The notes: generated by a model not told the origin, from the sequence alone. Counted from the first letter of the stretch, positions 1,336 through 33,041 are shown. The stretch: 64,000 bases of DNA from Steroidobacteraceae bacterium (GCA_040080215.1 JBEBIT010000008.1:14487-78486); one strand, 5' to 3'. Made by a program: numbers and translations.

Positions 1336-2169
1336 TTATTTGACCGTAACGAGGTAAGCGGTGACGTCGTGGATGTTCTTGTCGGTGTACTTCGGCAGCA
1401 GTGCCTTGTGGCCGACAAGCGGGTCCATGATCTCGACCTTCGGCGAGTCGCCCTTGCGCGTGAAGGTCCGCTGGGCGCCGTCGGGCAGCCGGATCGTCAG
1501 CGTGAACTCATCGATCCGCAGCAGGTCGCCGGTGGCGGTGCCGGTTGTCGTGGTGACACTCGCTCTCGAACAAGTGCCGCTCGCGGGCATCAGCCAGCGC
1601 TGCTGCAGGGGACGCGCCTCGGTGTACTTGGCGCCGATGCCCTTCAAGTCGCCGGTAACCGAGTGGCAGCTGGCGCAGTTCTCGCCGAAGAAGCGCTTGC
1701 CTGCGTTCGCGTTGCCGGTGACGAACTCGGCTGGCCGCATGCGGGCCGGGTCGCGGCTGCTGATCGAGAAGCTGTGCAGGAACTCGGCGATGTCCGCCAT
1801 CTGTTCCTTCGACAGCGAGAACGCGGCCATTGCGGTTCCCGGCACACCCTTGGTCACGATGTCGGAGATCAGCTCGCCTTTCTGGTCCCTCAGTACGAGC
1901 TGCGAACGCAGCAGGCTCGGGCCGCCGTCGCCGCCGCGCGTATCCTTGCCGTGGCAGAAGGCGCAGCCGTTCAACTGGTACAGGGCCGAGCCGCGTTCGA
2001 CGGCCGCCGGATCGGTCGTGCGTTCCGGATAGGCCTGCACTTGCTGGAAGGCGGGGATCTCCGACTCGCATTGCTTGAGGGCCTGGGCAGCCGCGTTGCC
2101 CGACAGCGTGAGCAAAGTGGCGATTGCGGTGCTCAGCTGCAACGTCTTAAGCAATTTCCGGTTGCGCAA
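1336..2169 (-). CDS. Di-haem c-type cytochrome, exported
   Basis: ORF 1336..2424(-). It has two CxxCH motifs (NGCAFCHGK and ENCASCHSV). I place the start at the TTG at 2169-2167, which has an AGGGGAA Shine-Dalgarno 6-7 nt upstream and gives the signal peptide (M)RNRKLLKTLQLSTAIATLLTLSGNAAAQA. It is adjacent to the downstream PQQ dehydrogenase with a 1-nt gap. Confidence 0.85.
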   Translation of the reverse strand: MRNRKLLKTLQLSTAIATLLTLSGNAAAQALKQCESEIPAFQQVQAYPERTTDPAAVERGSALYQLNGCAFCHGKDTRGGDGGPSLLRSQLVLRDQKGELISDIVTKGVPGTAMAAFSLSKEQMADIAEFLHSFSISSRDPARMRPAEFVTGNANAGKRFFGENCASCHSVTGDLKGIGAKYTEARPLQQRWLMPASGTCSRASVTTTTGTATGDLLRIDEFTLTIRLPDGAQRTFTRKGDSPKVEIMDPLVGHKALLPKYTDKNIHDVTAYLVTVK

Positions 2170-2300
2170 ACGGGTTCCCCTGTCTTTTAGGTCGCCCCTC
2201 GATGTCGGGGCGGATTGTCGATGCGGATTCTGCAATTGCGGAAGCGGCAGCACAAACCCAAGTGCGGGGCGCTGCCGGCAGTCATCACGCGGCGATAGTA

Positions 2301-2312
2301 GTAATCGATTAC
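2301..2312. promoter_or_regulatory. Perfect 12-bp palindrome GTAATCGATTAC; candidate LacI-family operator (site 1)
   Basis: Read directly from the sequence. It is self-complementary with a central CG, which is the architecture of LacI/GalR-family operators. It lies about 130 nt upstream of the cytochrome c start, in the 490-bp divergent intergenic region. Confidence 0.6.
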
Positions 2313-2496
2313 AGGGTTTTAGGGAAGCACCCGAAGCGCGGCAGCGGACACGTTGTTCGCCGCTTGCGCGGGCGTGGACCTTCACGGACTGTTTTGCTGC
2401 GATGCCGCATAGACTCCCTGCCAAACCGGGGCACAGACAAAATCAATTCGTGCTCTGGACATAAACCCCACTTCGCGCGCATATTCCCGACCAAAG

Positions 2497-2508
2497 GTAA
2501 TCGATTAC
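2497..2508. promoter_or_regulatory. Second identical palindrome GTAATCGATTAC; candidate LacI-family operator (site 2)
   Basis: Exact repeat of site 1. It lies about 150 nt upstream of the ATG at 2661 in the same divergent region. Confidence 0.6.
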
Positions 2509-2660
2509 AAGAATCAGATACCGCGACGGGGGAAAGGTGGACGCAGTCGGATCGTTCCGCATTCAGGGCGAAGTGCGTGCTGCGCGCGCGCCGAAGTTCG
2601 TCGTGGACCGATTGTGCCATCGACTGAACCTGCCCTGACAGCGCTGCCACCTATTCACGA

Positions 2661-3404
2661 ATGATCGACTTCATGGCCATACACCGTCGCTTTCACGATT
2701 CGCGCCTCCGACGCGCTGCCGTTGCGTGGCTCGCGAGCTGCCTTTTGTCGCCGGTCGCGTCTTACGCGATGGCGCCCGCAGCAGAAGCCCAGGATCTTTC
2801 GGGCACCTGGGAAGTGCGCTACGACAGCCAGAGCGTGCCTGTGGCCAGGCTTACTGCAAAAGCCAAGGCGGCCAGCGCGGCCATGGCAGTGAAGGACATC
2901 GAGTCCCGTCGCTGGTGCCGCATCGGCGGCATGCCTTTCCTCATGCTCGAATCCCCGTTGCTGATTATCCGCCAGAGCCGTGCCGAGATCGTGGTCGCAC
3001 CGCAGGTGCAGGCCGTCGCCCGGCACCTCTATACCGATGGCGTCGCCCGTGCCGACCTCAAGGACTTCGATCCCGCCACGAATGGCTACACGGTGGCTCG
3101 CTGGGAAGGCAGCGTGCTGGTAGCGGAAACGAGCGGCTTCTCGGACCTCGGCATCGTCACGATTCCCGGCGGCGGCTATCGCACGGAGAACTCGCGGCTC
3201 GTGGAGCGCTTTCGGGTGCTCGACGGCGGCAAGCGCTTGTCGGTGACGTCCACGTGGACGGATCCGGGTGTCTTTGCGCAGCCCCATACCTATGAGGTCC
3301 GCTATTACCGGGCCGATGCCGGCGCGAGCGCATCCGCGCAGGCCTGCAATCCCTTCGAGGCCGGCCGCGAGGCATTCTTCGCGCCGGCGTTAGGTAAGAA
3401 GTAA
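2661..3404 (+). CDS. Secreted protein of unknown function, family A subtype I (copy A1)
   Basis: ORF 2661..3404. It has an N-terminal hydrophobic leader followed by DLSGTWE. Motifs shared with the paralog at 10679..11419(-) are SRRWC-x3-GMP, RWEGxxLVxET, PGGGYRT, LVERFRV and TWTDPGVFxQPHTY, plus a second Cys near the C-terminus. The start could instead be the ATG at 2673. Confidence 0.75.
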   Translation: MIDFMAIHRRFHDSRLRRAAVAWLASCLLSPVASYAMAPAAEAQDLSGTWEVRYDSQSVPVARLTAKAKAASAAMAVKDIESRRWCRIGGMPFLMLESPLLIIRQSRAEIVVAPQVQAVARHLYTDGVARADLKDFDPATNGYTVARWEGSVLVAETSGFSDLGIVTIPGGGYRTENSRLVERFRVLDGGKRLSVTSTWTDPGVFAQPHTYEVRYYRADAGASASAQACNPFEAGREAFFAPALGKK

Positions 3405-3416
3405 GGAGTCCACACG

Positions 3417-3809
3417 ATGAAGTTCCATTTCGCCGCGGCGCTTGCGCTTGGCTTTTCGGGTGCTGCGTTCGCGCATCATTCGTTCTCCATGTTCGACATG
3501 GACAAGGACGTGACGCTGGAAGGCAGCGTCATCGAATACCGCTTCGGGAATCCGCATTCCCACATCATCATCAAGGTTCCTGCCGGCAAGGCACAGGCAG
3601 AGTACGCCGGCAACTGGGATGTCGAGGGCGGCAGCGCGACCATCATGCGCCGGCAAGGCTGGTCGCGGGAAACCTTCAAGCCGGGTGACGGCATCAAGAT
3701 AGTCGGGCACCCGATGCGCGATGGCACCAAGGGCATTTCACTGTTCTACGCGATCATGCCGGACGGCACCCGCCTGTACCACGACATCGCCCGGCCGAAG
3801 GCCGACTGA
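3417..3809 (+). CDS. Small secreted protein, family B (copy B1); I recall similar proteins annotated as DUF6152, which needs checking
   Basis: ORF 3417..3809, with an AAGGAG Shine-Dalgarno upstream. The signal peptide MKFHFAAALALGFSGAAFA ends in an AxA site and is followed directly by HHSFSMFD. Conserved NPHSH and GHPMRDG motifs are present. The paralog is at 10224..10637(-). Confidence 0.8.
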   Translation: MKFHFAAALALGFSGAAFAHHSFSMFDMDKDVTLEGSVIEYRFGNPHSHIIIKVPAGKAQAEYAGNWDVEGGSATIMRRQGWSRETFKPGDGIKIVGHPMRDGTKGISLFYAIMPDGTRLYHDIARPKAD

Positions 3810-3823
3810 TCTGCGGAGCCAAC

Positions 3824-4597
3824 ATGACCACGCAGACTTCGATGTGGCTGTCCCTCGTGCTTGCGTTGCCGGTGCTGACGGCGACCCAGGCTGTCCATGC
3901 GGCGGCCGCGCCGAACGTCGATCTCAGCGGCTTCTGGGAGCGGCGCGACACGCAGGGCGGCGGCAGCTTCGGCGGCATGCTGGCCAGTTTGCCAAAGGCA
4001 GTGCTCGTGCCGGATTTCGTGCCGCCGCGTGCACCCTCCACGCAGGTTGATCCGCCGAGCACCGGCAAGCCGAATGCGGTCGGGGTGCCGTATATCGTCA
4101 CGACCGGCAACTGCAGCACGAGTGCCAGCCTCAACATTCCCTTCATGATGACCCACTCCACGCCGATCGACATCGTGCAGGGTGCGGACGAAATCCTGAT
4201 CGTTCCTGAAATGCCGGGCGCGCAGCGGATCTACATGGACGGCCGTGCGCATCCCGCGACGGGTCGCGTGGCGCCGACCGGCCTCGGACATTCCGTCGGC
4301 CGATGGGAAGGCAATGAACTCGTTGTCCATACGGTCGGCATGTCGGCGGGGGGAGGCATTCCGGGCGGGGGCTTTCGCACGCCGGAGACCGAGCTCACGC
4401 AGCGCTGGCGTCTCAAGGAAGGTGGCGCACAGCTCGAGGTCGAGTTCACGTGGGTCGATCCCAAGATCTATGCAAAGCCGCATACCTTCTCGCTGACGTA
4501 CTTCCGCATGCCTCAATCGACCTACGCGCTCGAGGAATGGTGCGATTCCGGCGACCCGTTGCAGCGGCAGTCGATCGTCCCCCCGAAGCAGGACTGA
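3824..4597 (+). CDS. Secreted protein of unknown function, family A subtype II (copy A2)
   Basis: ORF 3824..4597. It has a signal peptide followed by VDLSGFWE. Core motifs are RIYMDGRAHP, GHSVGRWEGNELVVHT, PGGGFRT, LTQRWRL and FTWVDPKIYAKPHTF, and the C-terminus is EEWCDSGDP...VPPKQD. The closest paralog is 11428..12264(-), which ends in PPKQE. Confidence 0.8.
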   Translation: MTTQTSMWLSLVLALPVLTATQAVHAAAAPNVDLSGFWERRDTQGGGSFGGMLASLPKAVLVPDFVPPRAPSTQVDPPSTGKPNAVGVPYIVTTGNCSTSASLNIPFMMTHSTPIDIVQGADEILIVPEMPGAQRIYMDGRAHPATGRVAPTGLGHSVGRWEGNELVVHTVGMSAGGGIPGGGFRTPETELTQRWRLKEGGAQLEVEFTWVDPKIYAKPHTFSLTYFRMPQSTYALEEWCDSGDPLQRQSIVPPKQD

Positions 4598-4608
4598 AGC
4601 CGACTCAC

Positions 4609-5556
4609 ATGCCCTTGCTCAATCGACGGGAATTCTCGCTGGGCCTGCTCGCGGCTGCTGCCGCGTGGCGCACCGCAGAGGCGGCCGGCAAGTTGAGCGC
4701 CACGATTGGTGGCGTGCGCGTCGGTGCGATCACCTACAGTTTCCGCGAGGTGCCGCGGACGCCGGGCAAGGACTTCCTCGAGACGGGCCTCGAGAGCTGC
4801 GTGGCATCCGGGCTGGGCGTTGCCGAGCTGTGGGCCACGATGGTCCAGCCCGACCAGCCGCTGCTGCCGCGGGGTGGCCAGTACGAGATCGACCCGGCGA
4901 ATGCCGCGATGGTGAAGGCCCGGGAAGACATTCGTCGTTGGCGCGTCGATACACCGGCATCGTACTGGCAGGGTGTCCGCCGCCGGTTCGACAAAGCCGG
5001 CATCGAGCTGATCGGCTACTCGCTGACGCTGGCCGATGACTTCACCGACGAGGAAATCGACAAAACGCTGCTCGCCGTGCGCGCCATGGGCATCCGCGAC
5101 ATCGGCACGAACCAGACGCGCGTTTCGATGGGCAAGCGCGTTGCGCCCTTCGCTGACAAGCACGGTGTCCGCCTGTGCTTCCACAACCATGCGAATGTCG
5201 ACCATCCGAATGAAGTCGCGACGATTGCCAGCATGGAAGAGGTCCTGGCCCAGTCGAAACACTACATGATCAACCTCGACGTCGGCCATTTCGTGGCCGC
5301 CAACCTCGATCCGGTGGCGTTCATCACCAAGTATCATGGCCGGATCAGCTACCTTCATCTCAAGGACCGCAAGCGCGACAATGGGGCCAACATGCCCTGG
5401 GGTCAGGGGGATACGCCGCTCAAGGAAGTGCTGCAGCTCGTGAAGAAGGAGCGCTATCCGATCCCGTGCCTCATCGAGTACGAATACAAAGGCGAGCAGT
5501 CGCCGCTCGTCGAGGTTGGCAAGTGTGTGGAATACATCCGTCAGGCGCTGGCCTGA
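4609..5556 (+). CDS. Xylose-isomerase-like TIM-barrel enzyme (sugar phosphate isomerase/epimerase family) with a twin-arginine signal
   Basis: Internal ATG at 4609 of ORF 4450..5556. The N-terminus MPLLNRREFSLGLLAAAAAWRTAEAAG is a Tat-type leader. The body carries FHNHANVDHPNE, NLDVGH, LHLKDR and LIEYEY, which are typical of this TIM-barrel family. Confidence 0.8.
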   Translation: MPLLNRREFSLGLLAAAAAWRTAEAAGKLSATIGGVRVGAITYSFREVPRTPGKDFLETGLESCVASGLGVAELWATMVQPDQPLLPRGGQYEIDPANAAMVKAREDIRRWRVDTPASYWQGVRRRFDKAGIELIGYSLTLADDFTDEEIDKTLLAVRAMGIRDIGTNQTRVSMGKRVAPFADKHGVRLCFHNHANVDHPNEVATIASMEEVLAQSKHYMINLDVGHFVAANLDPVAFITKYHGRISYLHLKDRKRDNGANMPWGQGDTPLKEVLQLVKKERYPIPCLIEYEYKGEQSPLVEVGKCVEYIRQALA

Positions 5557-5674
5557 AGGCTTTTCTGTTTTCGATGTATTGATTTGATTGCGTTTTGCAA
5601 CGTGGCCATGCAGGGCAGGGGGCTGTCACTGGCTGGCTTGGATTCAGGAACAATAATCAGGGGAGATCCTGCTC

Positions 5675-7933
5675 ATGACCGAGAAAAGACCGGCTATCCA
5701 TCTTTCGCACCTCACCAGGCTGTGCCTGGGACTCGGTGCGCTTACCTTCACGTCGGCCTCGATGGCGCAAGCGCTCGAGGAAGTGGTCGTCACGGCGTTG
5801 CGCGTCGAGTCGAACGTGCAGAAGACCCCGATCGCGATGGAAGTGCTCGACAGCGACGCACTCAAGGACCAGGGCATCGTCAACGTCGCGACGCTCGCCG
5901 CAGTGAGCCCCAGCGTGAACATCACCGGCTTCGGTGGCGGCACCGTGCTCACGGTGCGCGGTGTCTCGAGCCGTGACACGACCGAGATCGGCGATCCGGC
6001 CGTGGTCGTGAGCGTCGACGGCTTCTACCAGGACCGTTCGTATGCGCTCGGCCTCTCCCAGTACGATCTCGCCCGCATGGAAATCCTGCGCGGACCTCAG
6101 GGCACGCTGTATGGCCGCAATGCGACCGGCGGTGCGATCAACATGTTCACCGTGCGACCGAGCAAGGAAGCCGGCGGCTACGCACAGGCGGACTTCGGCA
6201 ACTACGGTGCGATCAATGCAGAAGGTGCCATCAACGTGCCGTTCGGCGACCGCGTGCAGATGCGGGCGTCGTTTGGTTCGCTGTACCACGACGGGTATCG
6301 CGACGGCGGCTTCTTCGGCAAGATGGACGACGCCAACTCCCGCTCGGGGCGGTTGCAGTTTGCCTTCCAGCCCACCGAAAACCTTGATCTGTGGATCCTC
6401 GCGCAGCACACCAAGCAGACGTCGCTTGGCAACTCCGCGAATCTGAGAGGCTATAACGTCCTGCCGGCGACAACCTGCAACATGGTGGCCGCAGGTGCTG
6501 TACCGGCAAGAACCGGACCCTGCCAGCTGGTCAACCACAGCGCGATTCCCGAGCTCGGTGATCCGCAGGTGTATACGAAGTATTACATGTCGCAGCTCAA
6601 CCTGGATGACACGGTCGTCAAATGGAATGCGACCCTTCGCACGCCGATCGCGACCATCACGTACCTCGGTGGTTACGACCGTCTGGATTGGGATTCCTAC
6701 AATCCGGGAGCCACCTTCCCGAGTCCGCTCAACGTAGCCACCGTGCAAGCGAACTTCGCCACCGTCTACAACCAGACGGAAAAGCCGCGGACGACGAACC
6801 ACGAACTGCGGTTCCAGTCGGTCGACCCGGACGCAAGGTTGACGTGGCAGTTCGGTGCGTTCTACTTCAAGAACGACAACGACCTGGACTCTTTCAACCA
6901 GCGTCCGAACGGCACGGCGAACCCGACGCCGGTCATCCACTTCATCTACGACGTCGGCATCAAGTCGCTGGCCGAGATGGCCCAGGTGGCGTTCAAGGTG
7001 ACGGACGACTTCAAGGTCACGGCCGGCTTCCGGCACAACAAGGACGAGAAGTCGCGCCAGGGTTACTTTGGTGGGTTCCAGTACCTGCCGCCGACGCAGC
7101 CGCTGGTCATCAGCCCCGGAAGCGACATCAGCAAGAACACGTACCACCTCGGCCTCGACTGGCAGCTGAACCCGGACTCGCTCCTCTATGCGAAGTACGG
7201 CACAGGCTACAAGTCGGGCGGCTTCACGGACATCGCGCCGTACGGTCCCGAAGAGATCAAGACCTACGAAGTGGGTTCGAAGAACCGCTTCTTCAACAAC
7301 CAGGTTCAGTTGAACCTGTCGGCCTACCGCAGCGACTACAGCGGCCAGCAGGTGCAACAGATCGTCCAGGGTGGTGGTGGACTCAAGATCGAGAACGCGG
7401 GCGAGACCAAGCTGCAGGGTCTTGAAGCCGAACTCACCATGTCCTCGGACCTTGGACAGCTCGAGTTCAACCTGGCCTACCTCGATGCCGAGTTCACGAA
7501 GTTCGACCTTGCGTACGGTGCGCCCGTGTTCGACGTCACCCGCCAGGCATGGGCCAGTCTTGCGACGGTCAATGTCGACCTCTCGGGCAATCGTCCGCAG
7601 CAGGCCCCGGAGTGGACGATCGGTGCGGCCGTGCAGCGCTCGTTCAATGTCTGGGACGGCGAGCTGACGACGCGTGTGCAGACCAAGTACCAGACGGAGC
7701 AGTTCTACACGTTCTTCAACCGTCCGGACGACATGCAGAAGGCGTATGCCACCATCAACTTCCTCGCGACGTATGCGCCCACCGGCAGTCCGTGGCAGTT
7801 CCAGGCGTACGTGAACAACCTGAGCAACGAAACGGTGTTCTCGAACGCGGGTCCCAACGATCGCTCGTTTGTGTACTCCTACACGTATCAGGCGCCGCGC
7901 ACGTATGGAGGCCGCGTCAGCTACAAGTGGTAA
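5675..7933 (+). CDS. TonB-dependent outer-membrane receptor
   Basis: ORF 5675..7933, 752 aa. It has a signal peptide ending in MAQA and a plug domain (EEVVVTALRVESNVQKTPIAMEVL...LRGPQGTLYGRNATGGAIN). A long beta-barrel follows, with the C-terminal motif RTYGGRVSYKW. Confidence 0.95.
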   Translation: MTEKRPAIHLSHLTRLCLGLGALTFTSASMAQALEEVVVTALRVESNVQKTPIAMEVLDSDALKDQGIVNVATLAAVSPSVNITGFGGGTVLTVRGVSSRDTTEIGDPAVVVSVDGFYQDRSYALGLSQYDLARMEILRGPQGTLYGRNATGGAINMFTVRPSKEAGGYAQADFGNYGAINAEGAINVPFGDRVQMRASFGSLYHDGYRDGGFFGKMDDANSRSGRLQFAFQPTENLDLWILAQHTKQTSLGNSANLRGYNVLPATTCNMVAAGAVPARTGPCQLVNHSAIPELGDPQVYTKYYMSQLNLDDTVVKWNATLRTPIATITYLGGYDRLDWDSYNPGATFPSPLNVATVQANFATVYNQTEKPRTTNHELRFQSVDPDARLTWQFGAFYFKNDNDLDSFNQRPNGTANPTPVIHFIYDVGIKSLAEMAQVAFKVTDDFKVTAGFRHNKDEKSRQGYFGGFQYLPPTQPLVISPGSDISKNTYHLGLDWQLNPDSLLYAKYGTGYKSGGFTDIAPYGPEEIKTYEVGSKNRFFNNQVQLNLSAYRSDYSGQQVQQIVQGGGGLKIENAGETKLQGLEAELTMSSDLGQLEFNLAYLDAEFTKFDLAYGAPVFDVTRQAWASLATVNVDLSGNRPQQAPEWTIGAAVQRSFNVWDGELTTRVQTKYQTEQFYTFFNRPDDMQKAYATINFLATYAPTGSPWQFQAYVNNLSNETVFSNAGPNDRSFVYSYTYQAPRTYGGRVSYKW

Positions 7934-7963
7934 GCCTGGAATAGGGCGCTGTCAGAGACTCCA

Positions 7964-7998
7964 GCCGCGACGTGCTCAAGGCGTCGCGGCTTTTTTTT
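7964..7998 (+). terminator. Rho-independent terminator after the TonB receptor gene
   Basis: A 9-bp GC stem (GCCGCGACG at 7964-7972 pairing with CGTCGCGGC at 7982-7990) is followed by T8 at 7991-7998, about 30 nt after the stop codon. Confidence 0.85.
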
Positions 7999-8039
7999 GC
8001 TCGATGACGGCAGCGATGAACCCATTTGCAAGGTGCAGG

Positions 8040-10202
8040 ATGAAGTACCGGATGCCCGTCGCCGTGTTGGTGGCAACACTCTGTTCCCCGCTGGGTGGGT
8101 GCGATCGCGATGGGGCGTCTGCAGGCCAGGCCGACGCCGATTGGCCCGCGTACGGTGGGCATGAAACCGGCGACCGCTATTCGGGCCTCACGCAGATCAC
8201 GCCTGCCAACGTCACCAGCCTCAAGGTCGCGTGGCGCGTCGATCACGCAGGGACCGGCGAATCCCAGACGCAGCCGCTGGTCGTGGGCGGCACCGTGTAC
8301 ACGTATACGCCGGACCACAAGGTGCTGGCCCTCGATGCCGCTACAGGCGAACGTCGCTGGCAGTTCGATTCCGGACTCGTCGGCACTGGCCCTGCGCGCG
8401 GCCTGACGTGGTGGACGGACGGCAAGACGAGCCGCGTGTTTGCAAGCGTAATGAATTACCTCTTTGCGCTCGATCCTGCCACCGGCACGCCGCTGCAGGA
8501 CTTCGGCGTTCAAGGCGCGGTCGACTTGCGGCAGGGTCTGCGGGGCGACCCCCACGATCACTTCGTCGCGCTGACTTCGCCCGGCATTGTCTACAAGGAC
8601 CTCCTCATCGTCGGCTTCCGCACCAGCGAGACGATGCCTGCGCCGCCCGGCGATATCCGTGCGTACGATGTCCGCACCGGCGAGCTGCGCTGGACTTTCC
8701 ATACCCTGCCTGAGGCCAACGAGCCCGGCGCAGGAAGCTGGCCGGGCGACGCTCGTGCAACATCCGGAGCAGCCAACAACTGGGTAGGCATGGTGATCGA
8801 TGCGGGACGGGGCATCGTCTACGTGCCCACCGGATCCGCGGTGCCCGACTTCATCGGCATCGATCGCAAAGGCGACAACCTGTATGCGAACTCGCTGCTG
8901 GCGCTCGATGCCGCGACGGGCAAGCGCCTGTGGCATTTCCAGCTGGTGCACCACGATATCTGGGACCGCGATCCGCCGTCGCCCCCGGTGCTACTCACGA
9001 TCCGGCGCAATGGCAAGCAGATCGATGCCGTCGCACAGACGACGAAGCAGGGTTTCGTGTTCGTGTTCGATCGCGTGAGCGGCGAGCCGCTGTTTCCGGT
9101 CGAGGAACGCGCCTACCCGGCCAGCTCGCTCCCCGGTGAAGTGGCTTCACCTACGCAGCCCTTTCCGGTGCTGCCCGAACCCATCGCGCGGCAGCGGCTG
9201 ACAGAAGACATGCTGACGACAAGGACGCCTGAGGCCCATGCTGCGGCGCTGGATCGGTTCCGGACAATGCGCAGCGACGGGCAGTTTGTTCCGCTCGCGC
9301 TTGGCAAGCCCACCGTGGTCTTCCCGGGCTTCGACGGGGGAGCCGAGTGGGGCGGCGCCGCTGTGGATCCGCGGTCGGGCGTGCTGTACGTCAATGCGAA
9401 CGATGTGGCGTGGACCGGCGAGCTCGCACCTAACGTACCCGTCACGGGCGTCGCCGCGTCGCTGTACCAGGTACAGTGCGCCGCGTGTCATGGCGTCGAG
9501 CGCAAGGGCTCGCCACCCGCGTTTCCGTCACTCGTCGATGTGGGGCGGCGTCTCCCGGCTGCCGACGTTGTGACGGTCATCCGTGACGGGCGAGGCCGGA
9601 TGCCGCCGTTCGGCGCGCTGGGCGCGGAATCCATTGCCCTGCTCCAGGATTATCTGGTCACCGGCAACGATCGGCCTCTGCCGAGCCCCGTGGCATCCGC
9701 AGGCCCGGTGACTGCAGCACAGGCCGGCAGGGAGCCGATGACGAGGACGCTGCGCAACCCCAGCTCGCCGGGCAAGTACCGCTTCACGGGGTACCAGAAG
9801 TTCCTGGATGCAGACGGCTATCCCGCGATCGTACCCCCGTGGGGAACGCTCAACGCCATCGACCTCAACACCGGAAAGTATTTATGGAAGGTGCCGCTCG
9901 GCGAATATCCTGAGCTGGTGGCGCAGGGCATGAAGGACACGGGGTCGGAAAACTACGGTGGCCCGGTCGTTACCGAGGGCGGGCTGGTGTTCATCGGCGC
10001 GACGGTGTTCGACCACAAGCTGCGCGCATTCGACAGCAGGACCGGGAAGGTGTTGTGGCAGTACGAGCTGCCCTATGCGGGGACCGCGACGCCGGCGGTC
10101 TACAGCGTGGCAGGCAAGCAGTATGTCGTCATTTCCACCAGCAACGCGCGCAACCGCAATGCGCCGCAGGGGAGCGCGCTGATCGCCTTTTCACTTCCGT
10201 GA
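8040..10202 (+). CDS. PQQ-dependent beta-propeller dehydrogenase (glucose/quinate dehydrogenase-like) with an internally inserted c-type cytochrome domain; probable lipoprotein
   Basis: The ATG at 8040 lies downstream of the terminator and is preceded by AGGTGCAGG. The leader MKYRMPVAVLVATLCSPLGGCD contains the lipobox LGGC. The propeller motifs are DWPAYGGHETGDRYSGLTQITPANVTSLKVAWR, ALDAATGERRWQF and ALDAATGKRLWHF. The CAACHG haem site (YQVQCAACHGVERKG...GRMPPFG) sits between propeller segments. Confidence 0.9.
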   Translation: MKYRMPVAVLVATLCSPLGGCDRDGASAGQADADWPAYGGHETGDRYSGLTQITPANVTSLKVAWRVDHAGTGESQTQPLVVGGTVYTYTPDHKVLALDAATGERRWQFDSGLVGTGPARGLTWWTDGKTSRVFASVMNYLFALDPATGTPLQDFGVQGAVDLRQGLRGDPHDHFVALTSPGIVYKDLLIVGFRTSETMPAPPGDIRAYDVRTGELRWTFHTLPEANEPGAGSWPGDARATSGAANNWVGMVIDAGRGIVYVPTGSAVPDFIGIDRKGDNLYANSLLALDAATGKRLWHFQLVHHDIWDRDPPSPPVLLTIRRNGKQIDAVAQTTKQGFVFVFDRVSGEPLFPVEERAYPASSLPGEVASPTQPFPVLPEPIARQRLTEDMLTTRTPEAHAAALDRFRTMRSDGQFVPLALGKPTVVFPGFDGGAEWGGAAVDPRSGVLYVNANDVAWTGELAPNVPVTGVAASLYQVQCAACHGVERKGSPPAFPSLVDVGRRLPAADVVTVIRDGRGRMPPFGALGAESIALLQDYLVTGNDRPLPSPVASAGPVTAAQAGREPMTRTLRNPSSPGKYRFTGYQKFLDADGYPAIVPPWGTLNAIDLNTGKYLWKVPLGEYPELVAQGMKDTGSENYGGPVVTEGGLVFIGATVFDHKLRAFDSRTGKVLWQYELPYAGTATPAVYSVAGKQYVVISTSNARNRNAPQGSALIAFSLP

Positions 10203-10223
10203 GCAGGCGATCAGCGCGGCGTC

Positions 10224-10637
10224 TTACTCGGCCTTGGGACGAGCGATGTCCGTATACAGCCGCGTGCCGTCCGGCTTGTTGATGTAGAACAGGGCGCCGC
10301 CCTTGTTGCCGTCGCGCAGCGGATGGATCACCGCGTCGATGGGCTCACCGGCCTTCAGGGTCGACTTGGTCCAGCCCTGGCGGCCCATGATGACCGTGCC
10401 GCCGCCGCACTCGAAGTCCCACAGGCCGACCAGCGCCGGGTCGATGCCGGGCGCTGCGTCAACCTTGACGGTCACGTGCACGTGCGGGTTCATCCACTTG
10501 TATTCGACTACCGTGCCCTTCACGGCGACATTCTTGTCCATCTCGAACATGGCAAACGAATGATGGGCGAGGGCCGGCATCGCGATCGCGCCAGCCAGTG
10601 CCAGGGAAGCGAGCCATCGGGAAAGGTTGGGTCTCAT
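10224..10637 (-). CDS. Small secreted protein, family B (copy B2); paralog of 3417..3809
   Basis: Internal ATG at 10637-10635 of ORF 10224..10988(-). The sequence MRPNLSRWLASLALAGAIAMPALA is followed directly by HHSFAMFEMDKNVAVKGTVVEYKWMNPHVHVTVKV and, later, IHPLRDGNKG. Confidence 0.8.
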   Translation of the reverse strand: MRPNLSRWLASLALAGAIAMPALAHHSFAMFEMDKNVAVKGTVVEYKWMNPHVHVTVKVDAAPGIDPALVGLWDFECGGGTVIMGRQGWTKSTLKAGEPIDAVIHPLRDGNKGGALFYINKPDGTRLYTDIARPKAE

Positions 10638-10678
10638 CGCAGTTACTCCGTCAGTAGCCGGGCAGTCCGCTGGCAGTG

Positions 10679-11419
10679 CTATTTCGCGGACGGCGGGTTG
10701 GCAAAGAACTCGGCGCGCTCCTTGTCGAGCGGATCGCAGTCGAGCGTTGTTTGTACTTCGTAGAACTTCGGCGCCCGCGTATAGCGGTACGCGTAGGTGT
10801 GCGGCGTCTTGAAGACCTTGGGGTCCTCCCAGGTGAACGTGACGATCAGCGCATTGCCGTTGTTCGCGAGGCGATAACGTTCGGTGAGCTTGCTGTCCGT
10901 CGTGCGGAACCCGCCTCCGGGCAGCAGCGTCAGGCCCTTGTCGCCGTCGATGCCGACGGTCGTGACGACGAACGTATTGCCTTCCCAATGCCCGACGGAG
11001 TCGCCCGTCGACGTGAAGTCATAGTCGTCGAGGAGCATGTTGTCCTTGCGGTCGAGGTAGATGTGCCTCGGCGTCGCGCGCGTCTCGAAGTTGACCAGGA
11101 CCTCGTGGGCGGACTGGCGGATGTCGATCGGGCGCGGTGAATCCATGGCCATCGGCATGCCGATGAAGTAGCACCACCTGCGGGAGTTCGCATCCTTGGC
11201 CCGGTGTTCGGCAATGACGGCAGGCGTGACGGACGGCTGCAGGTTCGCTTGCGGAATATTGCGGCCGTCGTAGGGGAGTTCCCAGAAGCCGCTGATGTTA
11301 TGCGGATCGAACGACGCAGCCGGTGCCGCAGCCTGGGCAGGCAACACCATCGAGAGCGCCGTCGCCACGGTGGCGGCACGCAGCGAGGCGCGTACGAGAT
11401 TCTTGAGTGCGAATGCCAT
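10679..11419 (-). CDS. Secreted protein of unknown function, family A subtype I (copy A3)
   Basis: The ATG at 11419-11417 (MAFALKNLVRASLRAATVATALSMVLPAQAAAP) is preceded by AGGAG. Motifs present are NISGFWE, SRRWCYFIGMP, GHWEGNTFVVTT, PGGGFRT, LTERYRL, FTWEDPKVFKTPHTY and LDCDP. Confidence 0.8.
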   Translation of the reverse strand: MAFALKNLVRASLRAATVATALSMVLPAQAAAPAASFDPHNISGFWELPYDGRNIPQANLQPSVTPAVIAEHRAKDANSRRWCYFIGMPMAMDSPRPIDIRQSAHEVLVNFETRATPRHIYLDRKDNMLLDDYDFTSTGDSVGHWEGNTFVVTTVGIDGDKGLTLLPGGGFRTTDSKLTERYRLANNGNALIVTFTWEDPKVFKTPHTYAYRYTRAPKFYEVQTTLDCDPLDKERAEFFANPPSAK

Positions 11420-11427
11420 GGACGTCG

Positions 11428-12264
11428 TTACTCCTGCTTGGGCGGAGCCACGCCCTGTGACTGCTTGGGATCCGCGGCGTCGCAGTACCACTCGAACGCG
11501 AGCTGCCTTGGTAGTCCGCGTTCCGCGAGGATCTCGAACGTATGCGGCTTCGTGTAGATCTTCGGGTCCGTGAAGGTGTAGCGCATCGTGAGGCGATTGC
11601 CATCGGGGGACAGGCTGTAGCGCTCGACCAGGACCGTCTCCGGCGTCTTGTAGCCGCCGGCCGGGACACCGCCTGGCGTGAGTCCGACGGTTTCGAACAC
11701 CAGCGCACCGCCTTCATAGCGGCCTACCGAATGGCCGGTCGCGGTCGGCACAAAGCGCTTGAGGTCGGGATGCGGACGGCCGTCCATGTAGATGTTCCGG
11801 CCAAGGCCCGGATTCTCACGGACGATCACGACCTCGTCGCGGTCCTGCACGATGTGGAACGCGGCCGAGTTCGGTTCAATTCCGCCAGGGAAGCCGCACG
11901 TGCCGGCAGTAACCACGTAGGCCTCGCCGTTCTGGTACTTCTTGTTCGGATCCCATGCACCCGTCCGCGGGCCTGCCTTCTTCTCGCGTTCCCGCTGTTC
12001 CGCGTAGGCCGGAGTCAGGGAGGCTTGCGGAAAACCCGCGGCGAGGTTGTCGAAACTGCCGGACCCGGTCGCATCGATGCGAACCCAGGCACCAGTCAGG
12101 TCCGGAATGCCACCGGCCGGCTGTGCCGCGCTTGCGGGTGCGACAGTACCGAGCGCGCCCGCGGCGACCGTGATCGGGATCGCCAGCCACCGTGAGAAGC
12201 GGCGGACAGCAGGCGGACTGCGTCTTGCAATCGTCGCGTTGGTTAGCGAAGCGTGGGCTGGCAT
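11428..12264 (-). CDS. Secreted protein of unknown function, family A subtype II (copy A4)
   Basis: ORF 11428..12303(-). I prefer the ATG at 12264 because GGAG lies about 8 nt upstream. Motifs present are IPDLTGAW, RNIYMDGRPHP, GHSVGRYEGGALVFET, AGGYKTP, LVERYSL, YTFTDPKIYTKPHTF and WYCDAADP...APPKQE. Confidence 0.8.
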   Translation of the reverse strand: MPAHASLTNATIARRSPPAVRRFSRWLAIPITVAAGALGTVAPASAAQPAGGIPDLTGAWVRIDATGSGSFDNLAAGFPQASLTPAYAEQREREKKAGPRTGAWDPNKKYQNGEAYVVTAGTCGFPGGIEPNSAAFHIVQDRDEVVIVRENPGLGRNIYMDGRPHPDLKRFVPTATGHSVGRYEGGALVFETVGLTPGGVPAGGYKTPETVLVERYSLSPDGNRLTMRYTFTDPKIYTKPHTFEILAERGLPRQLAFEWYCDAADPKQSQGVAPPKQE

Positions 12265-12309
12265 TGTGGGTCTCCGGAGGGCTCCATCCAGCGGCCTCGG
12301 CACTGAAAT

Positions 12310-12321
12310 GGAAACGATTAC
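12310..12321. promoter_or_regulatory. Degenerate copy (10/12) of the GTAATCGATTAC palindrome: GGAAACGATTAC
   Basis: Read directly from the sequence. It lies about 46-57 nt upstream of the proposed start of the A4-A3-B2 operon. It has two mismatches, both in one half-site. Confidence 0.35.
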
Positions 12322-12408
12322 ACCGTTACGATGTCGGGAATCTAGCGCAATCGATGCGCAGAGGGCAATGCTGGATCTTCGCTGCTGCAGTGCGATATCG
12401 CGAGGCGG

Positions 12409-13461
12409 TCAGTCGGCCCGGCCGGTCGAGGTACGAACGATCAGCGAATGCGGCAGGACGATGGTGCGCACCGCATCGCCCGACAGGTCGGCCTCGTCCT
12501 GCAGCATCTCGATCATGAGCTGCATGGCCATTTCGCCGATGGCGGCCTGTGGCTGGTGGATCGTGGTCAGCGGCGGGTCGCAGTAGCCGGAAAAGCGGAT
12601 GTCGTCAAAGCCGACGATCGAGATATCGCGGGGTATCCTCAGTCGGGTTTCCTTGATCGCACGAGCAGCGCCGATCGCCATTTCGTCGTTGGAGCAGAAC
12701 ACGCCGGTCGGCTTCATTGGCTTGCCGAGCAGCGTTTTCATCGCGGCATAGCCAGAGGGCGCCGAGAAGTCGCCGTTGACGATGAGTTCCTCGTCGACCT
12801 TGATCTTTGCCTGGGCCATGCATTGCCTGAAGCCGGCAAGCCGGTCCTTGCTCAAGGGGTTGTGCATCGGGCCCGTGATCTTGGCGATGCGCGTGTGCCC
12901 GAGGCGGATCAGGTGCTCCGTTGCCATGGCCGCCGCCGCGACGTTGTCGATCCTCACGTTCGGCAGCTTGATGTGGTCGAAATATTCGCAAGCGGTAACG
13001 ACCGGGATGGATGAGCGCTCGTCGTCCGTCGCATTCTTGAGGATCGAGGGCAGCAGGGCGCCGAGCAGGATCAGGCCATCCGCTTCCTTGCGTGCCAGCA
13101 TGGAGGCATAGCTGTCCAGCCTTTCCTGGTTGCCCTGGCTTTCCCCAAGCAGCACCTTGTAACCGCTCAGGTGGGCGAGGTTCTCGATGCCACGGATGAC
13201 GTTCGAGAAGAACGGGTTATGGATGGAAGGCACGACGACGACGATGCTGTCGCTCTTCTGGCGGCGCAGGCGGCTCGCGAGCGCATTGGGGCGGTAGCCG
13301 GACTTGCGGATTGCGTTCTCGACCCGCTCGCGGGTGGCGGCACGGACGGTGTCCGGGGAGGCCAGGGTCCTGGAGACGGTTGCGACCGAAACCTTGGCAA
13401 CGCGGGCCACGTCCCGGATCGTGGGCGTCTGGCTCGTCTTCGTGCGGGTTCGGCGTGTCAT
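12409..13461 (-). CDS. LacI-family transcriptional regulator
   Basis: ORF 12409..13461(-), 350 aa. It has an N-terminal HTH (TIRDVARVAKVSVATVSRTLASPDTVRAATRERVENAIRKSGYRPNALA) followed by a periplasmic-binding-protein-like sugar-binding fold. Confidence 0.95.
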   Translation of the reverse strand: MTRRTRTKTSQTPTIRDVARVAKVSVATVSRTLASPDTVRAATRERVENAIRKSGYRPNALASRLRRQKSDSIVVVVPSIHNPFFSNVIRGIENLAHLSGYKVLLGESQGNQERLDSYASMLARKEADGLILLGALLPSILKNATDDERSSIPVVTACEYFDHIKLPNVRIDNVAAAAMATEHLIRLGHTRIAKITGPMHNPLSKDRLAGFRQCMAQAKIKVDEELIVNGDFSAPSGYAAMKTLLGKPMKPTGVFCSNDEMAIGAARAIKETRLRIPRDISIVGFDDIRFSGYCDPPLTTIHQPQAAIGEMAMQLMIEMLQDEADLSGDAVRTIVLPHSLIVRTSTGRAD

Positions 13462-28377: not shown

Positions 28378-28391
28378 TGTAATCGATTCCA
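28378..28391. promoter_or_regulatory. Near-palindrome TGTAATCGATTCCA, related to the GTAATCGATTAC sites
   Basis: Read directly from the sequence. It matches the perfect sites at 11 of 12 core positions. It lies in the divergent AraC / MFS intergenic region. Confidence 0.4.
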
Positions 28392-28587: not shown

Positions 28588-29865
28588 ATGGCAAGCGAAA
28601 CCGGCAAGCCCGCGGGCGGGAGCGTCCCGGCGGAATCCAGCACGGGCGTACGAACCGGCCTCTGGACCACCTTTGCGTCGGTGGTCGGACTGACATTTGG
28701 CCCGAGCGCCATCGCCGTGCTCGGGTTCGGGGTGTTCGTCCGCCCGCTCGAAGCCGAGTTCGGCTGGACGCGGACCCAGGTCTCGCTGGCTTCCGTGATC
28801 ATCTCGTGGATGATCGTGCTGGTGTCGCCGCTGCAGGGCATCCTGATCGACCGCTTCGGCGCGCGCCCGGTGGTGTTGTGCTCGATCCCGGCCTTCGCGG
28901 CCGGCATTGCGGCGCTGTATGTCCTGCCCAACAACCTTGCCGTGTTCTATCTCATGTGGGTGATCATTCCCGTGCTGGCCGTCGGGCTGTGGCCGCTCGC
29001 GTACCTCAAGGCGGTGAGCACATGGTTCGATCGACGCCTCGGACTCGCGATCGGTATCGCCAACGCAGGGATCGGCATCGGCAGTGCGCTGGTGCCGCTG
29101 ATCGCGGGTGCCCTGATTGCCACCTACGGCTGGCGCTCGGGCTATCTCGGCCTCGCCGTCATTGCACTCGTCGTCACCTGGCCCGTCTCGTGGCTGTTCC
29201 TGCGTGAGCAGCACGCGGTCGGCGATGCCGGCAAGCCAGGGGCGACCGCCGCACCGGCACTGTTCGGGATCGCGTTCAGGGAGGCGGCCCGCACGCGCAC
29301 GTTCTGGCTGCTCGGCGGGGCGTATTTCCTGCTGGGCGTCATCAACACCGCGCTGATCACGCAGCAGATTCCGATGCTGATCGACTCCGGGCTCACCCCG
29401 CAAGCGGCCGCGGTCGTGCAGTCCATCTTTGGCATCGCGATGATGGTCGGAAGGCTCGGTACCGGGTACGTCATCGATCGCGTGTTCGCCCCGTGGGTGA
29501 TGATCGTCGTGTCCCTGGGAGCCGCCATCGCCTGTGCGCTGTACGGTACCGGCGTGACCGGAGGCATGGTGTTCGTGTCCGCTTGCCTGATCGGACTCGT
29601 CGTCGGCGCGGAGTTCGATGTGCTCGCTTTCATGATCAAGCGTTATTTCGGCATCGTTGCGTACGGCAAGTTGTACGGCGTGATCTTTGCGGTGTTCCAG
29701 TTCGGCGCAGGCATCGGTGCCGCAGCGTTGCCGATCAGCCGCGGCCAGTTCGGCAGCTACACGCCCGGTCTCTACGCTTTCGGCATCGTGCTGGTCCTCG
29801 CCGCAGTCGTTTTCAGTCGGCTGGGCGCGTATACGTTCCAGCCGTCGCCGCCTGCGGCAAGGTGA
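28588..29865 (+). CDS. MFS transporter
   Basis: Internal ATG at 28588. The protein has about 12 hydrophobic segments, with the loop motif GILIDRFGARP between TM2 and TM3. Confidence 0.9.
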   Translation: MASETGKPAGGSVPAESSTGVRTGLWTTFASVVGLTFGPSAIAVLGFGVFVRPLEAEFGWTRTQVSLASVIISWMIVLVSPLQGILIDRFGARPVVLCSIPAFAAGIAALYVLPNNLAVFYLMWVIIPVLAVGLWPLAYLKAVSTWFDRRLGLAIGIANAGIGIGSALVPLIAGALIATYGWRSGYLGLAVIALVVTWPVSWLFLREQHAVGDAGKPGATAAPALFGIAFREAARTRTFWLLGGAYFLLGVINTALITQQIPMLIDSGLTPQAAAVVQSIFGIAMMVGRLGTGYVIDRVFAPWVMIVVSLGAAIACALYGTGVTGGMVFVSACLIGLVVGAEFDVLAFMIKRYFGIVAYGKLYGVIFAVFQFGAGIGAAALPISRGQFGSYTPGLYAFGIVLVLAAVVFSRLGAYTFQPSPPAAR

Positions 29866-32183: not shown

Positions 32184-33041
32184 ATGAAATTCCCTGGATT
32201 GCCCCTCTGTGCGTTTGCTGCGTTGCTGTTCGCCGGCAGCGCGGCCCACGCCCAGGTCGACCTCACTGGCATGTGGGGTCAGTTGACGACCTCGGACGGA
32301 CCCGAACGTGGCGCCGGTCCCGACTACGGCGACTACACCGGGCTACCGCTGAGCGCAGCAGGCCTGCTGCGGGCCGAAACCTGGAGCGACCAGAAATGGA
32401 CGGTACCGGAGCATCAGTGCGAGCCGCATCCGATCGACTATGCGCCATTCGGTCCTGCCGGCATGCGCGTCTGGGGCGACGTCGATCACCCGACGCAGCG
32501 GATAACAGCGCTGCACCAGACGTTCCAGTGGATGATCACGCATCGAGTGATCTGGCTTGACGGCCGCCCGCACCCGTCGCAGTACGCCCCGCACACATGG
32601 ATGGGGTTTAGCACGGGCAAGTGGATCGGCGACATGCTGGTCGTAAACACCACCCATATCAAGGAAGGCTGGATACGGCGCAATGGACCTTCCCGCAGCG
32701 AGAAGGGCAAGCTGACCGAATACTGGATGCGGCACGACAACCTGCTGACGATCACCAGCATTACCGAAGACCCGGTGTACCTGACGGAACCGGTTGTCCG
32801 CAGCATGAACTGGCAGCTGGATCCGGGTTACCAGCACGGCCCCTATCCGTGCTCGGCACGCGTCGAGATCGAACGGCCGCAGGGCTTTGTCGCGCACTTC
32901 CTGCCTGGGACGAATCCGCTGCTTGCCGAGTTCCGCGACAAGCTGGGAGTGCCTGTCCAGGCCGCGCAGGGGGGCGCTGAAGCGCTGTACCCGGAGTACG
33001 AGCAGAAGCTGCGCGACATGATCAAGGCTGCGAAGAAGTAG
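32184..33041 (+). CDS. Secreted protein of unknown function, family A subtype III (copy A5)
   Basis: Internal ATG at 32184. The signal peptide MKFPGLPLCAFAALLFAGSAAHAQ is followed by VDLTGMWGQL. Motifs present are RVIWLDGRPHP, GFSTGKWIGDMLVVNTTHIKEGWIRRNG and EDPVYLTEP. The two Cys residues are in equivalent positions to those of A1-A4. Confidence 0.7.
   Translation: MKFPGLPLCAFAALLFAGSAAHAQVDLTGMWGQLTTSDGPERGAGPDYGDYTGLPLSAAGLLRAETWSDQKWTVPEHQCEPHPIDYAPFGPAGMRVWGDVDHPTQRITALHQTFQWMITHRVIWLDGRPHPSQYAPHTWMGFSTGKWIGDMLVVNTTHIKEGWIRRNGPSRSEKGKLTEYWMRHDNLLTITSITEDPVYLTEPVVRSMNWQLDPGYQHGPYPCSARVEIERPQGFVAHFLPGTNPLLAEFRDKLGVPVQAAQGGAEALYPEYEQKLRDMIKAAKK

Follow-up and report, generated by a model that had tools for sequence, protein, structure and literature searches.

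Secreted proteins that conserve a His at the N-terminus bind Ni, Co, or Cu regardless of their fold, and the metalloproteins of this kind include lytic polysaccharide monooxygenases (LPMOs), CopC, YcnI, DUF4198, DUF6702, and the "anglerases" (Franco Cairo et al. 2025, PMC12537917). DUF4198 binds Ni and adjoins TonB-dependent receptors (TBDRs), DUF6702 has its metal site at His1, His28, and His32, and both have been found to possess little or no oxidase or peroxidase activity (PMC12537917). Here we report on a 64,000-nucleotide stretch of DNA from a Steroidobacteraceae bacterium (GCA_040080215.1 JBEBIT010000008.1:14487-78486), which at its full length is referred to as the window and which holds two copies of a three-gene set encoding secreted proteins. 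Each set encodes two members of an unnamed protein family, called A below and occurring as a short form (subtype I) and a long form (subtype II), together with one small protein, called B, that belongs to the Pfam family DUF6152 (PF19649). Our analysis supports A and B as a functional unit, with natural B-A and A-A fusions as the strongest new evidence for it, and identifies in B what is most likely a metal site of the N-terminal-histidine type. B as DUF6152 was already known; the A family, the A/B module, and the combination of an N-terminal-His protein of predicted OB-fold (oligonucleotide/oligosaccharide-binding fold) with a barrel partner are new.

By sequence criteria, B resembles the N-terminal-His metalloproteins. 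It is small and extracytoplasmic, it has a signal peptide, a His at mature position 1, and further conserved His, and some A/B loci adjoin TBDR genes as do some loci of these metalloproteins. Both B1 and B2, the copies in the window, are clear members of DUF6152 at 97.8 and 89 bits against a gathering threshold of 27 bits. With the cleavage site placed by sequence rules rather than by a predictor, B1 would be cut between AFA and HHS and B2 between ALA and HHS, and both would be left with a mature His-His N-terminus. The same arrangement holds throughout the B-type proteins with intact N-termini, where the His-His pair follows a hydrophobic stretch at a median of 24 residues from the start (236 of 236), the residue at -1 is always A, G, or S (236 of 236), and the residue at -3 is nearly always V, A, L, or I (213 of 236). 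Cleavage by signal peptidase I should therefore yield a mature protein that begins with His-His-Ser. In an alignment of 292 B domains the two His are conserved at 99% and 100% and an Asn-Pro-His motif at 94, 99, and 100%, which makes these the most highly conserved positions of the family. The motif lies at mature residues 26-28, and in mature numbering the key residues are therefore His1, His2, and His28. To judge from this pattern, they most likely form an N-terminal-histidine metal site that is histidine-brace-like and tri-histidine in character. The set is comparable to the His1/His28/His32 arrangement of DUF6702. His1 of B is conserved at essentially 100% compared with the 65-79% reported for DUF4198 and DUF6702 (PMC12537917).

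In other respects B stands apart from the described N-terminal-His metalloproteins. There is no sequence relationship, the predicted fold is an OB barrel instead of an Ig-like or cupredoxin sandwich, and B has an obligate-looking barrel partner, natural fusions to that partner, and sugar-repressor regulation. Sequence and predicted fold place B outside LPMO, CopC, YcnI, DUF4198, and DUF6702: Pfam gives only DUF6152 and no match to LPMO_10 (the AA10 LPMOs), and neither Pfam, NCBIfam, nor PDB sequences provide a match to CopC or YcnI (DUF1775). One JGI record does name a DUF6152 protein "YcnI", and we rejected the name since no model or predicted fold backs it. DUF6152 is not mentioned in PMC12537917 or its six supplement files. 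As a Pfam entry DUF6152 is a sequence catalogue item without function, structure, or literature, and our full-text searches found no paper that mentions either DUF6152 or PF19649. Searches combining histidine brace, OB-fold, TonB, and PQQ (pyrroloquinoline quinone) returned nothing on the A or B families, and a paper on PQQ import by PqqU held no gene context of relevance. The fold assignment comes from an AlphaFold2 (AF2) model of a natural B-A fusion, in which the B half matches OB-fold domains in Foldseek (SSB, PriB, and the N-domain of LysRS) with no close relative; B is thus predicted to be an OB-fold protein of roughly 110 residues. CusF and CcmE are small exported five-stranded barrels in which a handful of conserved residues hold the metal or cofactor. 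They share the OB-fold with B only as general topology: B has neither the His/Met/Met(/Trp) site for Cu(I)/Ag(I) of CusF (there is no conserved Met) nor the HxxxY motif of CcmE, it does not match the Pfam family CusF_Ec, and its best Foldseek matches are the SSB and LysRS OB domains and not CusF or CcmE.

In contrast to B, the A family has escaped the catalogues. The first-pass annotation, which was made from the sequence alone, had recognized no characterized member of either family. This holds for A, which has no Pfam, NCBIfam, or PDB relative, and needs refining for B, which is uncharacterized but already catalogued. A1-A4 match no Pfam family at E<=0.1 and no NCBIfam model, and when 51 family members were compared with Pfam at E<=5 there was no consistent weak match, lipocalin, FABP, ZinT, and other calycins included, and the isolated matches that did come up, Plk4_PB1 and GP38 among them, were noise. 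Among PDB sequences, no match to a profile of A, B, or the fusion was better than E 0.2. The family is nevertheless large. Searched against 1.84 billion representatives of 50%-identity clusters, the A profile matched 10,168 at E<=1e-3 and 3,796 at E<=1e-10, and in GTDB contigs with one genome per species it was found in more than 596 places spread over Acidobacteriota (Vicinamibacterales, Bryobacterales, Terriglobia), Gammaproteobacteria (Steroidobacteraceae, Rariloculaceae), and Alphaproteobacteria (Caulobacterales, Sphingomonadales, Rhodospirillaceae).

Several features of A are conserved within the family. The two Cys that had been noted at equivalent positions do align, and among 365 family members the first is conserved at 92% and the second at 75%, the rest being mostly gaps. 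A four-way alignment of A1-A4 also bears out the proposed core motifs GxSVG(R/H)(W/Y)EG, PGGG(F/Y)(R/K)T, and DPxxYxxPHT as well as the (D/N)(L/I)(S/T)GxW motif that follows the signal peptide. The GxW of the first strand is nearly invariant in the family (G 97%, W 96%), and about 15 polar residues are 75-99% conserved across varied genomic contexts, including E129, R134, Y137, D139, R141, H143, S157, E162, T170, E193, R194, T209, and D212-P213. An AF2 model of A2 (predicted local distance difference test score, pLDDT, 78; predicted template modeling score, pTM, 0.74) shows a beta-barrel that includes an N-terminal strand and a helical segment and for which the best Foldseek matches in the PDB are FABP, CRBP, and avidin barrels, at a weak E of about 3e-3 and a TM (template modeling) score of about 0.5. 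A is therefore predicted to be an FABP-like beta-barrel that resembles calycins and FABP only in topology. In its model, A would share with calycins (FABP/CRBP, lipocalins, avidins) the beta-barrel and the GxW-bearing N-terminal strand followed by a helical segment. In contrast to FABP, A is about double the size, has a disulfide pair that is conserved and a polar core that is invariant, and occurs as subtype I/II pairs and tandem fusions. The metal-linked periplasmic example among calycins is ZinT/YodA, with a calycin-like barrel and an N-terminal His-rich metal site.

The link between A and B was followed in 80 loci from other genomes, spanning Acidobacteriota, Alphaproteobacteria, and Gammaproteobacteria, that were retrieved with the A profile alone and scanned in six frames with hidden Markov models (HMMs) of A and B. 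Both families are present in 60 of the 80 loci, and in 55 the two are either fused or no more than 300 bp apart. Starting from B instead, all four plasmid loci examined have an adjacent A. In 15 loci, 23 open reading frames (ORFs) encode B and A as a single polypeptide, with B first in every case and a layout of signal peptide, DUF6152, Ala/Pro-rich linker, and A. The A part opens at (S/T)L(E/A)GxW, the motif found past the signal peptide in free A. When one such fusion was compared with the protein database, more than 100 fusions of about 340 aa matched it at identities of at least 63%, of which Pfam sees only the DUF6152 half. A also fuses to itself: among the 149 best A representatives, about 18 are tandem A-A proteins with lengths of 450-530 aa. 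The subtype I/II split of the first-pass annotation proved real and recurs in adjacent I+II pairs in Acidobacteriota and Proteobacteria, and in the closest clade (L001-L011, L086, and L088 among our loci) adjacent A genes always comprise one of each. Together, the fusions and the conserved neighborhood are Rosetta-stone signals that predict a physical complex of A-I, A-II, and B. The AF2 model of a natural B-A fusion scores pTM 0.77 and pLDDT 81.5, values compatible with a defined packing of B on A, and its A half matches the SAHS4, CRBP1, and UnaG barrels. The linkage of A to B, the fusions, and the N-terminal His site are absent from Pfam, NCBI, and JGI names and from full-text searches. One further candidate, an apparent fusion of a Plug domain to A (L089, 6436-7815), was rejected as a read-through or frameshift chimera in a metagenome-assembled genome (MAG) from long reads. 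It has an internal lipobox (LLAAC), which hints that some A proteins are lipoproteins.

The first-pass annotation read the six genes of the window as a plus-strand set, A1-B1-A2, and a minus-strand set, A4-A3-B2, and all six ORFs were found where it had placed them. All six proteins have Sec-type signal peptides, in line with the secretion that had been proposed. The suggested pairing of A1 with A3, A2 with A4, and B1 with B2 lies far beyond chance in pairwise BLASTP, with 40% identity for A2/A4 (E 2e-59), 39% for A1/A3 (E 5e-51), and 52% for B1/B2, compared with 30% for A1/A2 (E 2e-26). The gene order is indeed shuffled, being A-I, B, A-II in set 1 and A-II, A-I, B in set 2. At the DNA level the sets share only inverted arms of 28-179 nt that are 70-96% complementary, and arms so short and diverged reflect the coding similarity of an old duplication and not a recent repeat. 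A related proteobacterial MAG (L001) contains both sets, arranged and oriented as in the window, and each gene has its single orthologue there at 62-74% identity; the duplication is therefore older than the split of these genomes. Every part of the initial reading of a secreted three-gene set without characterized relatives, duplicated long ago and kept under selection, is thus upheld. Membership of a well-characterized family, or genes that fail to co-occur outside this genome, would have spoken against that reading, and neither was found.

The surroundings of the two sets are listed in Table 1.

Table 1. Genes and sites of the A/B locus and related features, in window coordinates.
Feature	Position	Strand	Basis or remark
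Second PQQ dehydrogenase, partial, cut by left window end	ORF 3-1496 (3 to about 1330)	-	Clusters with PQQ dehydrogenases; downstream of cytochrome c gene
Cytochrome c gene	1336-2169	-	Pfam Cytochrom_C + Cytochrome_CBB3; divergent from A1
LacI-type operator-like palindrome AGTAATCGATTACA	2300-2313		Divergent cytochrome c/A1 region
Sigma-70-like site	2456-2485		Divergent cytochrome c/A1 region
LacI-type operator-like palindrome GGTAATCGATTACA	2496-2509		Divergent cytochrome c/A1 region
A1, A-family subtype I (short form), exported, predicted FABP-like beta-barrel, 247 aa	2661-3404	+	NCBI name "hypothetical protein"
B1, DUF6152 protein, 130 aa	3417-3809	+	Pfam PF19649, E 4e-28, 97.8 bits
A2, A-family subtype II (long form), 257 aa	3824-4597	+	GSFGG-containing insertion, PPKQ C-terminus
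Xylose-isomerase-like TIM barrel with twin-arginine signal (NRREFSL)	4609-5556	+	Pfam AP_endonuc_2; 12 bp after A2
TBDR, last gene of A1-B1-A2-TIM operon	5675-7933	+	Pfam Plug + TonB_dep_Rec_b-barrel
Intrinsic-terminator-like hairpin, closes operon	7963-7991	+	Sequence: 11 pairs, then T7
Quinohaemoprotein PQQ-dependent dehydrogenase	8040-10202	+	Pfam PQQ, E 1e-187, + Cytochrome_CBB3; converges on B2
B2, DUF6152 protein, 137 aa	10224-10637	-	Pfam PF19649, E 2.3e-25, 89 bits; NCBI name "DUF6152 family protein"
A3, A-family subtype I, 246 aa	10679-11419	-	A-family alignment; NCBI "hypothetical protein"
A4, A-family subtype II, about 278 aa from ATG at 12264	11428-12264	-	ORF extends to GTG at 12303
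LacI-type operator-like site TGGAAACGATTACA	12309-12322		Between LacI stop codon and A4 start
LacI-family transcriptional regulator	12409-13461	-	Pfam LacI + Peripla_BP_1/3/4; upstream of A4-A3-B2, same strand
MFS (major facilitator superfamily) transporter gene	28591-29865		Operator-like site 28378-28391 upstream
Third, divergent A-like pair	32184-33041 and 34086-34961	+	Flanks metallo-beta-lactamase-fold gene 33054-34085 (+)

The position of the sets on either side of the receptor and PQQ genes is as the first-pass annotation described it. The relation is closer than flanking, since the sets are co-operonic with the receptor/PQQ genes and have LacI-type operators in common. The gaps within A1-B1-A2-TIM-TBDR are short and the terminator stands at the end. 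The nearest PDB relatives of the TIM barrel are uncharacterized "sugar isomerases" and, more weakly, enzymes of 3-keto-sugar pathways, and those of the PQQ dehydrogenase between the sets are quinohaemoprotein alcohol dehydrogenases. This dehydrogenase has a lipobox-like LGGC after its signal sequence, and the segments of its beta-propeller are interrupted by a cytochrome c domain (residues about 476-542). Its nearest NCBIfam family is the glucose/quinate/shikimate membrane dehydrogenases, from which it differs in lacking the membrane anchor. Farther along the window are a second TIM barrel, a GFO/IDH/MocA oxidoreductase, an aldo-keto reductase, and two amidohydrolase_2 genes. An Rfam scan of window bases 1-36000 found neither a riboswitch nor any other RNA family.

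Regulation of the locus can be approached through the palindromes of Table 1. The site ahead of A4 is an exact match to TGNAANCGNTTNCA, which occurs twice in the window where 0.06 occurrences are expected, and palindromes related to TGTAATCGATTACA number 6 against 0.65 expected, the relevant ones beginning at 2300, 2496, 12309, and 28378. A match at 48732, within a PilY1-like gene, was set aside as probably due to chance. In L001 the 12-mer GTAATCGATTAC is found again a short distance upstream of the A1 orthologue (8741-8752), and beside a LacI gene in L088 (458-469). From the known consensus of the family, we infer that these palindromes are LacI-family operators. They would place both sets, the cytochrome c/PQQ dehydrogenase operon, and the MFS gene in what is probably one LacI regulon. 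The locus has the look of a regulon that is induced by a sugar and serves uptake across the outer membrane and oxidation in the periplasm, and it does not resemble a metal-homeostasis locus.

In other genomes the company of A and B is more varied. Among the same 80 loci with their +/-10 kb flanks, and with counts that are indicative only for want of a genome-wide background, the most frequent neighbor within 3 kb of A/B is a PQQ dehydrogenase (12 loci, and 17 when the whole flanks are counted), followed by cytochrome c (11 and 15), an AP_endonuc_2 TIM barrel (10 and 11), a TBDR (9 and 15), FAD_binding_4 (4 and 4), and Amidohydrolase_2 (3 and 7). Genes for GH3, MFS, and GFO/IDH/MocA proteins recur as well. 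The order of cytochrome c followed by PQQ dehydrogenase seen to the left of A1 is also found in L001, L007, L009, and L011. A Steroidobacteraceae MAG has LacI-TBDR-A-A-TIM-MFS-B-PQQ/cytochrome c-GFO-TIM-AKR (AKR, aldo-keto reductase), and Steroidobacter flavus has B-MFS-TBDR-GH3-A-TIM-B. A 2.86 Mb metagenome contig (L086) carries a CarboxypepD_reg-domain protein, GH3, A-A-B, and three small genes, and a Croceibacterium plasmid has B-B-A followed directly by a TBDR. The B-A fusions of Rariloculaceae adjoin esterases, a TBDR, arylsulfotransferases, and YHYH proteins. In L083 and L089, from Rariloculaceae and a related gammaproteobacterium, fusions stand repeatedly beside arylsulfotransferase (PF05935), carboxylesterase, YHYH-domain, and TBDR genes, a setting quite unlike the sugar-oxidation locus of the window. 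Sphingobium sp. TomTYG65 has an A-B-A-B array on its plasmid pTomTYG65a (L091, 5676-8330), adjoined by a peroxiredoxin, two monooxygenases, a TBDR, and TauD/SsuD-type sulfonate utilization genes, and this context suggests that in sphingomonads the module is connected with organosulfur or oxidative metabolism. Copy number can be high, with up to five sets within 20 kb in L072 and three A sets in the window. We conclude that the module is a generic accessory of varied extracytoplasmic catabolic loci, often in several copies per genome. In this it recalls the accessory proteins of TBDR loci (SusD-like proteins, BtuG, and hemophores), which are likewise found in variable catabolic or uptake loci, often in multiple copies and sometimes next to the receptor. 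A and B differ from these proteins in that they have no homology to them, are not lipoproteins, and show no regular adjacency to a receptor gene, with B and not the receptor as the conserved partner of A. A role for A as a general TBDR partner was rejected because only 9 of the 80 loci have a TBDR within 3 kb.

The explanation that we favor, and hold tentatively, is that A and B form a periplasmic complex with an N-terminal-histidine metal center that assists periplasmic catabolism. B would dock on the A-I/A-II pair to give a single complex, which in the closest clade would consist of A-I, A-II, and B. Inside it, a small organic ligand would sit in the A barrels, and B would supply a constant metal center that binds or acts on this ligand. 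In the window, both copies would be part of a regulon under LacI control through which a sugar-like substrate is taken up in a TonB-dependent manner and oxidized in the periplasm, with the TIM barrel exported by twin-arginine translocation, the quinohaemoprotein PQQ dehydrogenases, cytochrome c, and the MFS transporter as proposed fellow members. The module would then be an accessory of periplasmic catabolism and not of metal homeostasis. The position of B at the front of all fusions fits a need for a free B amino terminus. Since the polar core of A stays constant while the genomic context varies, and since the repressor is of the sugar type, constant metal-dependent chemistry or binding is likelier than variable recognition or metal homeostasis.

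A number of observations weigh against this explanation. A occurs without B in 20 of the 80 loci, and in MAGs of Bryobacteraceae and Solibacteraceae (L021, L022, L036, L064) there are 3-6 tandem A genes in loci from which a DUF6152 gene is absent, which means that A can expand and presumably work without B in some Acidobacteriota. The His of A are conserved only at 66-75%, and A is therefore probably not completing the metal site. In the B-A fusion model, which has the signal peptide still attached, the N-terminal His have a pLDDT below 55. The Foldseek matches are weak, with E from 6e-4 to 3e-3 and TM scores of about 0.5; those of A to FABP, CRBP, UnaG, and SAHS4 have target-normalized TM scores of 0.47-0.56. 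Besides the indicative nature of the neighbor counts, adjacency to a TBDR may not be above chance in genomes rich in TBDRs, and no further gene family is shared by most of the 80 loci, so that the neighbors do not define a process served by the module.

If the metal site is accepted, the histidines of B could instead serve in metal trafficking. B would capture Ni, Cu, Zn, or Co entering the periplasm through a TBDR or porin while A serves for docking, and would hand the metal over to a transporter or to periplasmically folding enzymes, a role that has been proposed for DUF4198 and DUF6702. The invariant N-terminal His-His and Asn-Pro-His of B agree with such a role, as does the precedent of DUF4198, an N-terminal-His protein that binds Ni beside TonB receptors (PMC12537917). 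So do the TBDR genes within 3 kb in nine loci, within the operon in the window, and directly after B-B-A in Croceibacterium, and the fact that PQQ dehydrogenases, the most enriched neighbor, acquire their metal in the periplasm. We nevertheless consider it unlikely, because the regulator in the window is a LacI-type sugar repressor and not of the Fur, Zur, NikR, or CueR type, no metal transporter or metal regulator recurs among the neighbors, the many paralogous sets per genome noted above would be unusual for metal chaperones, and His ligands are ill-suited to the Ca or lanthanide ions of PQQ enzymes. An alternative that dispenses with the metal altogether would have the A barrels ferry poorly soluble or labile substrates, such as glycosides, aromatics, or organosulfur compounds, across the periplasm from the outer-membrane receptor to enzymes or an inner-membrane transporter. 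B would serve as a lid or adaptor, its histidines contacting the ligand or a partner and not a metal. The FABP/CRBP-like model of A with its calycin GxW on the first strand speaks for a shuttle of this kind, the TBDR, GH3, and MFS contexts resemble carbohydrate utilization loci, and high paralogy with paralogues at 30-40% identity would fit diversification for different ligands. However, the constancy of about 15 polar A residues and of the B His triad across contexts implies constant chemistry rather than variable pockets, and both the strict N-terminal His-His and the B-first fusions are hard to explain without a role for a free amino terminus. We regard this alternative as doubtful, and more so than metal hand-off.

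A stronger version of metal-dependent chemistry would make B a periplasmic oxidative metalloenzyme of a new type, in which a histidine-brace-type copper or another redox metal oxidizes or cleaves a substrate held by A. By analogy with the redox partners of LPMOs, electrons or H2O2 might arrive through the neighboring PQQ dehydrogenase or cytochrome c. The N-terminal His site, the invariant polar core of A, and the sugar-repressor regulation would all suit an enzyme of this kind, genes for PQQ dehydrogenase, cytochrome c, and FAD_binding_4 proteins recur, and peroxiredoxin/AhpC-type genes lie near two loci. Against it stand the predicted OB-fold in place of an LPMO, CopC, or cupredoxin sandwich, the absence of any Pfam match to LPMO, CopC, or YcnI, the little or no oxidase or peroxidase activity of DUF4198 and DUF6702 (PMC12537917), and the lack of a redox partner gene at most loci. 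We think this improbable, source of electrons or H2O2 included. Taken further, A/B(/A) would constitute a new class of metalloenzyme in which an OB-fold His1-His2/His28 center of copper type is clamped on barrels that present small-molecule substrates, a bold view to which we give equally little weight. Its corollary, which seems to us just as improbable, is that such enzymes would oxidize sugars, aromatics, or organosulfur compounds or cleave bonds in them, electronically coupled to PQQ dehydrogenases and cytochrome c, and would have diversified into many paralogues in soil and sediment heterotrophs. A last option is suggested by the tissue inhibitors of metalloproteinases (TIMPs), which have an OB-fold and inhibit metalloproteases by chelating the catalytic zinc with their N-terminal residue. 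B shares with them a predicted OB-fold and a free N-terminus that appears functionally indispensable, and as a TIMP-like inhibitor or immunity protein it would use its N-terminal histidines to block a metalloenzyme. No protease or toxin gene recurs near A/B, however; the recurring partner is the A barrel and the locus is sugar-regulated, and we judge this option very improbable.

The scale of these families gives the module its interest. DUF6152 proteins and their fusions number in the thousands and the A family comprises about 10,000 clusters at 50% identity, yet A has no family model. The carriers are abundant heterotrophs of soil, freshwater, and marine sediment, drawn from Acidobacteriota, Steroidobacteraceae, Sphingomonadales, Caulobacterales, and Rariloculaceae. 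Six "hypothetical proteins" of the window become a defined unit with a predicted complex, a candidate metal site, and LacI operators as a regulatory handle, and cultured carriers suited to genetics exist in Steroidobacter flavus (CGMCC 1.10759), Novosphingobium (N. humi), and Croceibacterium (C. atlanticum). Should the metal site prove real, DUF6152 would be an OB-fold member with an obligate partner among the N-terminal-histidine metalloproteins, and it could expose a missing accessory step in periplasmic sugar and aromatic oxidation that is relevant to carbon turnover.

The module may have further components. A family of about 300 aa without a Pfam match, labeled u9, follows B in acidobacterial loci (L006, L007, L009, L023, L054), and three small uncharacterized genes come after A-A-B in L086 (9266-10841; 158, 162, and 187 aa); both are candidates for such a role. 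The third A-like pair of Table 1 has no DUF6152 gene nearby. Its first gene scores 45 with the A HMM, and the second is related at an hhalign E of 0.0024. Both proteins begin with (V/I)DLTGxW past the signal peptide and retain the Cys pair and the TxxDP core, and the divergence of this pair suggests that the A superfamily extends beyond what our profile covers.

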